Assembly: GCF_041248615.1 (NCBI RefSeq)
Contig: NZ_CP158426.1
Source: Escherichia coli
GTDB lineage: Bacteria; Pseudomonadota; Gammaproteobacteria; Enterobacterales; Enterobacteriaceae
DNA: 64,000 nt
Strand: one strand, 5' to 3'
The notes under the pieces: model-generated
Databases searched by the model: none
Seen by the model: the letters and a program-made list of their open reading frames with translations, nothing else
Told to the model about the DNA's origin: nothing
In this document: positions 2,790 through 39,522 of the stretch, one piece after another
Layout: the number at the start of each line of letters is the position of its first letter
Position numbering within the stretch: the first letter of the stretch is position 1
Translations under genes and position numbers: made by a program

Positions 2790-3155
2790 GTCGACAGGGA
2801 GTCAGACAACGAAGTGAACATCAGGATGATGACACTTCTGAAGGACACACCAGGATGGTGTTTCAGGGAAAGGCTTCTGGATGAAGCGAAGAGGATGACG
2901 CAGGACGCGTTAAAGGACACCTCCAGGATGGAGAATGAGAACCGGTCAGGATGATTCGGTGGGTCAGGAAGGCCAGGGACACTTCAGGATGAAGTATCAC
3001 ATCGGGGTGGTGTGAGCAGGAAGCAATAGTTCAGGATGAACGATTGGCCGCAAGGCCAGAGGAAAAGTTGTCAAGGATGAGCAGGGAGCAACAAAAGTAG
3101 CTGGAATGCTGCGAAACGAACCGGGAGCACTGTGAATACAGTGCTCCCTTTTTTT
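2790..3155 (+). ncRNA. csrB: CsrB small RNA (CsrA-sequestering), 5' end approximate
   Basis: About 365 nt with many repeated CAGGATG / AGGA(U)G GGA motifs; ends in hairpin 3123-3148 plus T7 run 3149-3155; located between syd and yqcC. Confidence 0.85.
3123..3155 (+). terminator. Intrinsic terminator of csrB
   Basis: 11-bp stem GGGAGCACTGT/ACAGTGCTCCC, loop GAAT, followed by TTTTTTT. Confidence 0.8.
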
Positions 3156-3200
3156 ATTCCTGCTATCCTTCGCGGCAGTTTTTCTTATTGAGGTTGCTTT

Positions 3201-13670: not shown

Positions 13671-15905
13671 ATGGTTGCGGTAAGAAGTGCACATATCAAT
13701 AAGGCTGGTGAATTTGATCCGGAAAAATGGATCGCAAGTCTGGGTATTACCAGCCAGAAGTCGTGTGAGTGCTTAGCCGAAACCTGGGCGTATTGTCTGC
13801 AACAGACGCAGGGGCATCCGGATGCCAGTCTGTTATTGTGGCGTGGTGTTGAGATGGTGGAGATCCTCTCGACATTAAGTATGGACATTGACACGCTGCG
13901 GGCGGCGCTGCTGTTCCCTCTGGCGGATGCCAACGTAGTCAGCGAAGATGTGCTGCGTGAGAGCGTCGGTAAGTCGGTCGTTAACCTTATTCACGGCGTG
14001 CGTGATATGGCGGCGATCCGCCAGCTGAAAGCGACGCATACCGATTCTGTTTCCTCCGAACAGGTCGATAACGTTCGCCGGATGTTATTGGCGATGGTCG
14101 ATGATTTTCGCTGCGTGGTCATCAAACTGGCAGAGCGTATTGCTCATCTGCGCGAAGTAAAAGACGCGCCGGAAGATGAACGCGTACTGGCGGCAAAAGA
14201 GTGCACCAATATCTACGCGCCGTTGGCGAACCGTCTTGGGATTGGACAACTGAAATGGGAGCTGGAAGATTACTGCTTCCGTTATCTCCACCCGACCGAA
14301 TACAAACGCATCGCAAAACTGCTGCATGAACGCCGTCTCGACCGCGAACACTATATCGAAGAGTTTGTCGGCCATCTGCGCGCTGAGATGAAAGCTGAAG
14401 GCGTTAAAGCTGAAGTGTATGGTCGTCCGAAACACATCTACAGCATCTGGCGCAAAATGCAGAAAAAGAACCTCGCCTTCGATGAGCTGTTTGATGTGCG
14501 TGCGGTACGTATTGTCGCCGAGCGTTTACAGGATTGTTATGCCGCACTGGGGATAGTGCACACTCACTATCGCCACCTGCCGGATGAGTTTGACGATTAC
14601 GTCGCTAACCCGAAACCAAACGGTTATCAGTCTATTCATACCGTGGTTCTGGGACCAGGTGGCAAAACCGTTGAGATCCAAATCCGCACTAAACAGATGC
14701 ATGAAGATGCAGAGTTGGGTGTTGCTGCGCACTGGAAATATAAAGAGGGCGCGGCAGCTGGCGGCGCACGTTCGGGACATGAAGACCGGATTGCCTGGCT
14801 GCGTAAACTGATTGCGTGGCAGGAAGAGATGGCTGATTCCGGCGAAATGCTCGACGAAGTACGCAGCCAGGTATTTGACGACCGGGTGTATGTCTTTACG
14901 CCGAAAGGTGATGTCGTTGATTTGCCTGCGGGATCAACACCGCTGGACTTCGCTTACCACATCCACAGTGATGTCGGGCACCGCTGCATCGGGGCAAAAA
15001 TTGGCGGGCGCATTGTGCCGTTCACCTACCAGCTGCAGATGGGCGACCAGATTGAAATTATCACCCAGAAACAGCCGAACCCCAGCCGTGACTGGTTAAA
15101 CCCAAACCTCGGTTACGTCACAACCAGCCGTGGGCGTTCGAAAATTCACGCCTGGTTCCGTAAACAGGACCGTGACAAAAACATTCTGGCTGGGCGGCAA
15201 ATCCTTGACGACGAGCTGGAACATCTGGGGATCAGCCTGAAAGAAGCAGAAAAACATCTGCTGCCGCGTTACAACTTCAATGATGTCGACGAGTTGCTGG
15301 CGGCAATTGGTGGCGGGGATATCCGTCTCAATCAGATGGTGAACTTCCTGCAATCGCAATTTAATAAGCCGAGTGCCGAAGAGCAGGATGCCGCCGCGCT
15401 GAAGCAACTTCAGCAAAAAAGCTATACGCCGCAAAACCGCAGTAAAGATAACGGTCGTGTGGTGGTAGAAGGTGTCGGTAACCTGATGCACCACATCGCG
15501 CGCTGCTGCCAGCCGATTCCTGGAGATGAGATTGTCGGCTTCATTACCCAGGGGCGCGGTATTTCAGTGCATCGTGCAGACTGTGAGCAACTGGCGGAAC
15601 TGCGCTCCCATGCGCCAGAACGCATTGTTGACGCGGTATGGGGCGAGAGCTACTCCGCCGGATATTCGCTGGTGGTCCGGGTGATGGCCAATGATCGCAG
15701 TGGATTATTGCGTGATATCACGACCATTCTTGCCAACGAGAAGGTGAACGTGCTTGGCGTTGCCAGCCGTAGCGACACTAAACAGCAACTGGCGACTATC
15801 GACATGACCATTGAGATTTACAATCTGCAAGTGCTGGGCCGCGTGCTGGGTAAACTCAATCAGGTGCCGGATGTTATCGACGCGCGTCGGTTGCACGGGA
15901 GTTAG
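13671..15905 (+). CDS. relA: GTP pyrophosphokinase RelA ((p)ppGpp synthetase I)
   Basis: 744-aa ORF, RelA/SpoT family. Confidence 0.9.
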   Translation: MVAVRSAHINKAGEFDPEKWIASLGITSQKSCECLAETWAYCLQQTQGHPDASLLLWRGVEMVEILSTLSMDIDTLRAALLFPLADANVVSEDVLRESVGKSVVNLIHGVRDMAAIRQLKATHTDSVSSEQVDNVRRMLLAMVDDFRCVVIKLAERIAHLREVKDAPEDERVLAAKECTNIYAPLANRLGIGQLKWELEDYCFRYLHPTEYKRIAKLLHERRLDREHYIEEFVGHLRAEMKAEGVKAEVYGRPKHIYSIWRKMQKKNLAFDELFDVRAVRIVAERLQDCYAALGIVHTHYRHLPDEFDDYVANPKPNGYQSIHTVVLGPGGKTVEIQIRTKQMHEDAELGVAAHWKYKEGAAAGGARSGHEDRIAWLRKLIAWQEEMADSGEMLDEVRSQVFDDRVYVFTPKGDVVDLPAGSTPLDFAYHIHSDVGHRCIGAKIGGRIVPFTYQLQMGDQIEIITQKQPNPSRDWLNPNLGYVTTSRGRSKIHAWFRKQDRDKNILAGRQILDDELEHLGISLKEAEKHLLPRYNFNDVDELLAAIGGGDIRLNQMVNFLQSQFNKPSAEEQDAAALKQLQQKSYTPQNRSKDNGRVVVEGVGNLMHHIARCCQPIPGDEIVGFITQGRGISVHRADCEQLAELRSHAPERIVDAVWGESYSAGYSLVVRVMANDRSGLLRDITTILANEKVNVLGVASRSDTKQQLATIDMTIEIYNLQVLGRVLGKLNQVPDVIDARRLHGS

Positions 15906-16000
15906 TCTTACATAGCTGGATATGGCGTCAGCCGTATCCAGCGATATCTTTTACTCGAAGGTATTACACCTGACGGACCCGCAATTTTCAGGACATTCTA

Positions 16001-16792
16001 ATGAATCAAATCGACCGTTTGCTCACCATCATGCAGCGCCTGCGCGATCCGGAAAACGGCTGCCCGTGGGATAAAGAGCAGACATTTGCCACCATTGCAC
16101 CTTACACCCTTGAAGAAACCTACGAAGTGCTGGACGCCATTGCCCGTGAAGATTTTGACGATCTGCGCGGTGAACTCGGCGATCTACTGTTCCAGGTGGT
16201 TTTTTACGCACAAATGGCTCAGGAAGAAGGGCGCTTTGACTTTAATGATATATGCGCCGCGATCAGCGATAAATTAGAACGTCGCCATCCGCATGTTTTT
16301 GCTGACAGTTCTGCCGAAAACAGTAGTGAAGTGCTTGCCCGTTGGGAGCAAATCAAAACCGAAGAGCGCGCGCAGAAAGCGCAGCATTCGGCGCTGGACG
16401 ATATTCCTCGTAGTTTACCGGCTTTAATGCGTGCGCAAAAAATCCAGAAACGTTGCGCCAACGTTGGTTTTGACTGGACGACGCTTGGTCCGGTAGTCGA
16501 TAAAGTCTACGAAGAGATCGACGAGGTGATGTACGAGGCACGGCAGGCTGTTATCGACCAGGCTAAACTGGAGGAGGAAATGGGCGACCTGCTGTTTGCC
16601 ACGGTCAATCTGGCTCGTCATTTAGGGACAAAAGCGGAAATCGCATTGCAAAAAGCGAACGAAAAATTCGAGCGTCGTTTTCGCGAAGTGGAGCGTATTG
16701 TTGCCGCGCGTGGACTGGAAATGACAGGTGTTGACCTCGAAACAATGGAAGAAGTCTGGCAACAGGTAAAACGGCAGGAAATTGATCTCTAA
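16001..16792 (+). CDS. mazG: Nucleoside triphosphate pyrophosphohydrolase MazG
   Basis: 263-aa ORF with tandem MazG motifs; begins 95 bp after relA with no mazE/mazF in between. Confidence 0.85.
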   Translation: MNQIDRLLTIMQRLRDPENGCPWDKEQTFATIAPYTLEETYEVLDAIAREDFDDLRGELGDLLFQVVFYAQMAQEEGRFDFNDICAAISDKLERRHPHVFADSSAENSSEVLARWEQIKTEERAQKAQHSALDDIPRSLPALMRAQKIQKRCANVGFDWTTLGPVVDKVYEEIDEVMYEARQAVIDQAKLEEEMGDLLFATVNLARHLGTKAEIALQKANEKFERRFREVERIVAARGLEMTGVDLETMEEVWQQVKRQEIDL

Positions 16793-16805
16793 GGGAATTA
16801 CGTGG

Positions 16806-16847
16806 TCAAGCGCGATTTGTGTCATTTTTTAAATGACAAGCGCTTGA
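16806..16847 (+). terminator. Imperfect hairpin downstream of mazG, possible terminator
   Basis: TCAAGCGC..TGTCATTT / AAATGACA..GCGCTTGA inverted repeat; weak U tract. Confidence 0.35.
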
Positions 16848-17004
16848 TTTGCGTCAAAAACATTTACCCCAAAGGGGCTATTTTCTCACTCCTGATTTCA
16901 ATAGTGCGCTGGCGAAGAGGAGGGATAATGAAAGTTTGTGGCACAGGTCATGTTCGGGTATACTGCTTTCCCGTCCTGGTTATTCCATCGTCTTTTCAAC
17001 CTAA

Positions 17005-18657
<1,653 letters not shown>

Positions 18658-39161: not shown

Positions 39162-39369
39162 GCGAGCAGCATTCCTGATTTTAAACGTGAACGCCGCTGG
39201 AAGAATTATCAGGTATAGAATGGCGTTGGGTGCTTGAGGCTGTCTGGCGTTAAGCATTCGCGAGGTTCCAGATGGACAAAAGCCCCAGGCGATATTTCTA
39301 TCAACCTGAGGCCAGCGTTCGAACCTAAGCAATTCGAATGTTAGTCTCTTCTTTGCAGGGAGGCAAGAC

Positions 39370-39522
39370 ATGCTGACAAAATATGCCCTTGTGGCAATCA
39401 TCGTACTGTGTTGTACAGTACTGGGATTCACGCTGATGGTAGGCGACTCGTTGTGTGAGTTGAGTATCAGAGAACGTGGTATGGAGTTTAAGGCAGTTCT
39501 CGCTTACGAATCGAAGAAGTAG
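39370..39522 (+). CDS. Hok/Gef-family small membrane toxin (50 aa), HokE-like; not in ORF track because shorter than 60 aa
   Basis: [50 protein letters not shown]: hydrophobic N-terminal helix, conserved Cys, Hok signature ..LCE..R...E..A.LAYE; mRNA-like 5' GGGUGCUUGAGGC and 3' GCACCC plus T-run. Confidence 0.7.

Follow-up and report, generated by a model that had tools for sequence, protein, structure and literature searches.

Genes and features at the relA–mazG junction

The stretch of DNA analysed here (the window, 64,000 nucleotides) carries relA followed directly by mazG on the same strand, with rlmD and barA upstream of relA and pyrG and eno downstream of mazG. The relA stop codon is TAG at 15903-15905, and the open reading frames bear out the original prediction of a relA end at 15905 and a mazG start at 16001, with a gap of exactly 95 bp between them.

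13671 to 15905, + strand: relA (GTP diphosphokinase), 744 aa; NCBIfam equivalog NF008124 (1678 bits), open reading frame list and RefSeq annotation of NZ_LT599825.1
15906 to 16000, + strand: relA–mazG spacer, 95 bp, read here as the unoccupied and very probably ancestral allele of the mazEF insertion site, from comparison with E. coli, other Escherichia, Citrobacter and Klebsiella
16001 to 16792, + strand: mazG (nucleoside triphosphate pyrophosphohydrolase), 263 aa; TIGR00444 (419 bits), NF007113 and RefSeq WP_001071643.1

This is the arrangement of an unoccupied site, namely relA and then mazG with a short spacer and nothing annotated inside it. The RefSeq record NZ_LT599825.1 has no feature between the two genes, tblastn with the E. 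coli AbrB-fold antitoxin MazE and PemK-family endoribonuclease MazF against all frames of the whole 64-kb window gave no match at E <= 1e-3, and alignment of the spacer with the mazEF insert of other strains stayed at chance level (see below), so that the gap indeed holds no mazE or mazF coding sequence or remnant, as had been claimed. The one open reading frame of note in this interval, of 50 aa at 15922-16074, was rejected as spurious: it starts within the hairpin described below, overlaps mazG out of frame and is unannotated in RefSeq. Scanning 15500-16400 permissively against Rfam returned only a chance-level match (PK-IAV, E = 7.7).

Two further RNA matches were recorded elsewhere in the window. 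The sRNA CsrB (Rfam RF00018, 382.9 bits) lies at 2799-3158 on the + strand, about 6.4 kb from barA, and its presence is presumably what one expects of that chromosomal region. The antitoxin RNA sok (Rfam RF01794, 111.7 bits) lies at 39228-39385 on the + strand, which implies a hok/sok type I toxin-antitoxin (TA) locus in that part of the window.

The window corresponds to positions 1,152,001-1,216,000 of the chromosome of E. coli NRZ14408 (NZ_LT599825.1), where a 24-kb query matched in one piece at 100.0% and 9 kb were identical; other E. coli stand at about 98%, and the window is from this species. NRZ14408 is carbapenem- and colistin-resistant according to the title of the paper cited for it. 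Isolate 362 from Madrid (NZ_OW967178.1) is its close relative, with 100% identity over 1.1 kb at the junction and 99.7% over the 24-kb query. Only three genomes reached at least 99% identity over 24 kb, the next best standing at 98.1-98.6%. The lineage (NRZ14408, isolate 362, ST2747) is thus seldom sampled; most other E. coli are 2-5% away from it in the flanks. Isolate 362 also carries, between nrdG and cybC (4,272,750-4,273,272 of NZ_OW967178.1; L086:10750-11272), an annotated RelE-family toxin with a RelB/DinJ-family antitoxin, a further small TA cassette wedged amid core genes.

The hairpin and the probable REP origin of the spacer

Within the spacer, palindromic elements are followed by the signals that precede mazG.

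15915 to 15942, + strand: REP-like hairpin with a 12-bp stem (GCTGGATATGGC / GCCGTATCCAGC) and the loop GTCA; from folding, scanning and alignment
15943 to 15952, + strand: T-rich tail GATATCTTTT after the hairpin, which together with it gives a weak terminator-like signal in a lenient scan
15953 to 15985, + strand: decayed second REP ACTCGAAGGTATTACACCTGACGGACCCGCAAT, aligned to the second REP of C. gillenii, Citrobacter wls619 and K. pneumoniae
15990 to 15993, + strand: likely Shine-Dalgarno sequence of mazG, AGGA, 7 nt before the ATG and within the motif TTTCAGGA; from the spacer alignment, with the function inferred

A hairpin had been noticed at this place before; it is real, and its stem is longer than was then described, comprising 12 pairs from 15915 to 15942, of which seven are G-C and one is G.U. 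The predicted RNA fold of the spacer is more stable than that of all 200 shuffled sequences (z = -4.4). Comparison with related genera points to where this structure came from. In Citrobacter and Klebsiella the spacer begins, directly after the relA stop, with classical REP/BIME palindromes (GTAGGCCGGATAAGGCG...CCGCCATCCGGC), and in the alignment the E. coli hairpin GCTGGATATGGCGTCAGCCGTATCCAGC coincides with the first of these REPs in C. gillenii, Citrobacter wls619 and K. pneumoniae. Across this alignment the pairing is kept in 85.7% of cells, versus 21-39% with slid partners, and one pair is compensatory, C-G having become U-A with both sides changed.

The arm sequence agrees with this origin. 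Consensus-type arms (GCCGGATAAGGCG ... CGCCTTATCCGGC) can be recognized in the hairpin, the left arm matching the REP consensus GCCGGATAAGGCG at 11 of 13 positions, although the copy is degenerate (GCTGGATATGGCG versus GCCGGATAAGGCG) and the second REP is recognizable only by alignment. On the separate question of a multi-copy family in this genome, the REP arm pattern with up to two mismatches has seven loose matches in the window against 1.7 expected, a number reached by none of 100 shuffles. The position is likewise that of a REP: extragenic, at the 3' end of a gene, and at the same place as the REPs of related genomes. Like the REP/BIME elements, then, the structure is an imperfect palindrome behind a gene, standing where Citrobacter and Klebsiella have theirs and keeping its stem, and on sequence and alignment we regard it as a degenerate REP palindrome. 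The TTTCAGGA motif just upstream of mazG varies little among the spacers compared (E. coli, E. albertii, Citrobacter, Salmonella and Klebsiella).

The T-run behind the hairpin is only 4 nt long, starts 6 nt past the 12-pair stem and passes only a lenient terminator scan. Because of this short and distant T-run, efficient intrinsic termination at the hairpin appears doubtful.

Two alleles of one site in E. coli

The locus of K-12 MG1655 reads relA-mazE-mazF-mazG with the antisense RNA aMEF in addition, which confirms that K-12 carries mazE-mazF where the window has none. When the junction was aligned with those of K-12-type and other E. coli, the difference came down to a swap of one segment.

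15906 to 15966, + strand: 61 bp found only in the empty allele; strains with mazEF have 698 bp here instead (alignment)

What the two alleles have in common is the end of relA and the 34 bp immediately preceding the mazG start codon (15967-16000), which are identical; the right part of the decayed second REP, from 15967, is therefore shared with the mazEF-bearing allele. The 698-bp segment consists of promoter/operator, mazE, mazF and a short tail. The K-12-type allele thus has the same flanks and the same 34 bp before the ATG as the window, and differs in that the 61-bp REP segment has given way to a cassette comprising the P2/P3 operator palindromes, mazE, mazF and aMEF. The GC content of the insert is 46.6%, versus 53.9% for relA and 51.3% for mazG. 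Flanking direct or inverted terminal repeats of the mazEF insert were sought as a sign of transposition, and none was found, the only repeats being those known from the operator.

No relic of the cassette could be detected in the spacer. Local alignment with the 77-bp mazEF promoter region scored at chance level (1279 of 2000 shuffles as high), as did alignment with the whole 698-bp insert (1998 of 2000 shuffles as high) and with its tail, and neither the GTATCTACA operator palindromes nor any other remnant of the cassette was found by this means.

How common the two forms are was asked of 5,426 complete E. coli genomes, the relA–mazG locus being found in 5,425 of them. The mazEF DNA is present in 4,419 (81.4% of the 5,426), and the empty-allele filler, searched for with an 80-bp query spanning the specific part of the spacer, in 1,006 (18.5%), with matches at 90-100% identity. 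As these two counts add up to 5,425, the site has two forms. Among the strains with the empty site are EC958 and other strains of O25b:H4-ST131, SYNB1934 (which we take to be a derivative of Nissle 1917), UPEC 26-1, strain 042 and many avian isolates.

The original prediction implied that the absence of mazEF was something unusual. This does not hold, for 18.5% of complete E. coli genomes have the same allele and the arrangement is already in the literature: the review of Fraikin, Goormaghtigh and Van Melderen (2020; PMC7167474), citing Pandey and Gerdes (2005) and Fiedoruk et al. (2015), states that many strains lacking these systems, for example UTI89, keep relA-mazG as an undisturbed bicistronic operon, and describes TA insertion loci as plastic. 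The B2 strain NRG857c has classic mazEF (PMC7232551). In gene order and in the absence of mazEF the window is the same as the UTI89-type bicistronic arrangement, and nothing essential differs; homology of the spacer itself was seen in the 1,006 genomes, in divergent Escherichia, and as colinearity in Citrobacter and Klebsiella. The absence of mazEF here is accordingly real, ordinary and already known. What we can add to the known picture is small: the probable derivation of the spacer from REPs, what looks like a scar in E. albertii, and further cassettes occupying this site in other genera.

The chromosome was also searched for mazEF and its paralogs elsewhere. With a window-specific anchor joined to mazEF, a blastn search in 'distant' mode returned 5,428 chromosomal places, equal to the number for the anchor alone, and no ectopic chromosomal mazEF was found on any chromosome of the collection. 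The anchor joined to a K-12 chpS-chpB query found two places in NZ_LT599825.1. There, chpS-chpB is annotated and intact at 4,765,138-4,766,895, between ppa and ytfP, and it is present in the relative isolate 362 as well. Judged from its chromosome, which is what was searched, the strain is a natural mazEF null that keeps the MazF-family paralog ChpB together with its antitoxin ChpS.

The ancestral state

Species representatives were scanned for the locus by means of MazG, which gave 80 loci: 78 from species other than E. coli and two labelled E. coli. Between relA and mazG, MazE or MazF was found in none of the 78 non-E. coli Enterobacterales representatives, whose gaps are mostly 46-146 bp. 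A Salmonella representative has a gap of 74 bp, in line with the earlier statement that Salmonella has relA directly followed by mazG. Both representatives labelled E. coli are divergent Escherichia, with flanks 92-96% identical to the window, and have the same 95-bp spacer. The spacer is also colinear with those of Citrobacter and Klebsiella, with the REP in the corresponding position, right behind the relA stop codon.

E. albertii offers the comparison that shows what a loss may leave behind. The type strain NBRC 107761 (L006:2740-3000) lacks mazEF and has a spacer of 261 bp, in which we found relics of the mazE operator region (about 30 bp) and of the tail that follows mazF (about 33 bp), each with a score as high in none of 2000 shuffles, and, between these two relics, two REP palindromes. 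This looks like the scar of a mazEF loss that was backfilled by REPs. The same spacer has a match to the Rfam sRNA family ES036 (CssrF) at 2816-2858 of L006 on the - strand (44.9 bits, above the gathering threshold). Since the relic places mazEF in the history of a species outside E. coli, mazEF may have been gained and lost more than once.

From the colinearity with the outgroups and the freedom from relics, unlike E. albertii, it follows that the allele of the window predates the mazEF insertion and is not the product of a clean deletion. We therefore consider it very probable that the gap is the ancestral, never-occupied relA-mazG region, composed of a decayed REP pair followed by the mazG ribosome-binding site, and that a 698-bp cassette replaced 61 bp of it in about 81% of E. 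coli. Where it had been proposed that this strain either never acquired mazEF or lost it cleanly, the first half is retained, in the sense that the allele, being colinear and relic-free, never held mazEF, and the clean loss is not.

That the allele was never occupied does not by itself settle the history of the lineage. An ancestor with mazEF might have regained the empty allele from an empty-site donor, by homologous recombination in the conserved relA and mazG flanks, so that the lineage lost mazEF while the allele remained ancestral. Several observations would suit such a replacement. The flanks of the window are 98.6% and 99.1% identical to those of the mazEF-bearing strain CH10268, with which it shares an identical MazG (WP_001071643.1), and 97.4% and 98.3% identical to those of the empty strain SCU-102; with flanks as close to CH10268 as to SCU-102, the allele may have come by recombination and not by vertical descent alone. 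Moreover, E. coli strains differ from one another mostly within the final ~400 bp of relA and the initial ~700 bp of mazG (87-97% identity per 100 bp), with 98-100% identity farther out; this pattern around the mazEF site suggests either an old two-allele polymorphism or recombination breakpoints. The nearest non-clonal genomes over 24 kb (98.1-98.6%) appear to comprise both states, as inferred from 14 versus 16 annotated feature names per row. Nevertheless, replacement needs an extra event, and the empty site is seen in all seven genomes that reach 99% identity or more at the junction; we hold replacement to be improbable.

Deletion of mazEF in situ from an occupied allele of this lineage has an even smaller chance of being right, notwithstanding that such loss is known to occur, the E. 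albertii type strain being without the genes. Deletion cannot make the 61 bp of sequence that are specific to the empty allele and colinear with the REP spacers of outgroups, and this colinearity effectively excludes it; besides, the spacer of the window has no operator or tail relic, its scores being those of chance, unlike that of E. albertii, and the same spacer recurs in 1,006 genomes and in divergent Escherichia. An assembly collapse or mis-join, or a wrong organism, has nothing that we found in its favour and a negligible probability, given that mazEF is single-copy and offers no repeat to collapse, that the same junction stands in 1,006 independent complete assemblies and in isolate 362 with identity over 1.1 kb, and that the window is identical to one E. 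coli chromosome and about 98% so to others.

Expression of relA and mazG

Taking the never-occupied site as the setting, one can envisage how the two genes would be expressed. A scan of 15500-17100 for sigma-70-like promoters predicted none, and hence none for mazG. In the empty-site strain relA and mazG would form a two-gene operon, in which read-through from the relA promoters would probably supply the mazG transcript, and mazG would be translated by way of a Shine-Dalgarno sequence of its own. REP elements in general have established roles as attenuators and as stabilisers of mRNA 3' ends. The REP-type hairpin of the spacer would probably act as a partial transcription attenuator, as a 3' mRNA stabiliser, or as both, and so set the ratio of relA to mazG.

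The occupied allele would behave otherwise. According to PMC5120126, mazG and mazEF are cotranscribed in K-12, and a TA cassette that is transferred takes along its promoter/operator while lacking a terminator. From this cotranscription and the terminator-less nature of the cassettes, the two alleles should regulate mazG differently, and the regulation of mazG probably does differ between them; in the empty-site strain, mazG expression would be uncoupled from the autoregulation of MazE/MazF, unlike in K-12.

The spacer as a site for cassettes

Other spacers in our collection hold genes of their own. That of Superficieibacter sp. 1612_C1 (L019:2174-2786) has a ParD-family antitoxin (TIGR02606, E = 8.9e-25) followed by a 98-aa open reading frame, which we take from its position to be ParE-like, no NCBIfam family matching it. 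The ParD cassette fits the remark in the review cited above (PMC7167474) that Salmonella can have parDE between relA and mazG. S. electus (L017:2048-3000) has an apparently degraded ParD/ParE-like version and a hydrophobic open reading frame of 112 aa. The spacer of Buttiauxella agrestis ATCC 33320 (L043:1341-2928) is enlarged by a 1.8-kb insert encoding the type VI secretion tube protein Hcp/TssD (TIGR03344, E = 3.4e-56), along with open reading frames of 261 aa and of 109 aa (the latter hydrophobic), neither with a family match; together with Hcp these may make up an Hcp-effector-immunity cassette that uses the same hotspot. The parDE of Superficieibacter and Salmonella and the Hcp cassette of Buttiauxella resemble mazEF in being small, self-contained cassettes placed exactly between relA and mazG, though the families differ and none of them is in the window.

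Unusually long spacers were observed in Pectobacterium (L063, L065, L066), Brenneria (L067, L070) and Samsonia (L074), with a conserved stretch about 340-420 bp upstream of mazG. They contain recurring pseudo-translations such as RRARHGASNRRRPVTPVF and no convincing open reading frame, and an Rfam scan of the L063, L066, L067, L070 and L074 spacers gave no match. A repeat element, or an RNA not yet described, may lie in these spacers.

It is tempting to go one step further and to think of the spacer as an integration hotspot across genera, marked by REP/BIME elements, where small selfish or competition cassettes (mazEF, parDE, the Hcp cassette) repeatedly replace the palindromes and may afterwards disappear again, REPs then filling their place as E. 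albertii suggests. We put this forward tentatively, as an idea that is rather unlikely to be correct. If it were true, REP palindromes, or enzymes acting on REPs, would take part in the integration of chromosomal TA cassettes.

Significance

E. coli lineages that naturally lack mazEF are common, and they already serve in the literature as an argument for regarding mazEF as a dispensable accessory inserted into a working relA-mazG operon. For work on the part of MazF in stress, cell death and phage defence, this means that mazEF is not to be assumed in clinical lineages: NRZ14408 and the sampled ST131 strains are without it, and NRZ14408 keeps ChpBS. More generally, the REP-derived spacer, the apparent scar in E. 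albertii and the other cassettes found at this site bear on how TA cassettes choose the places into which they insert.
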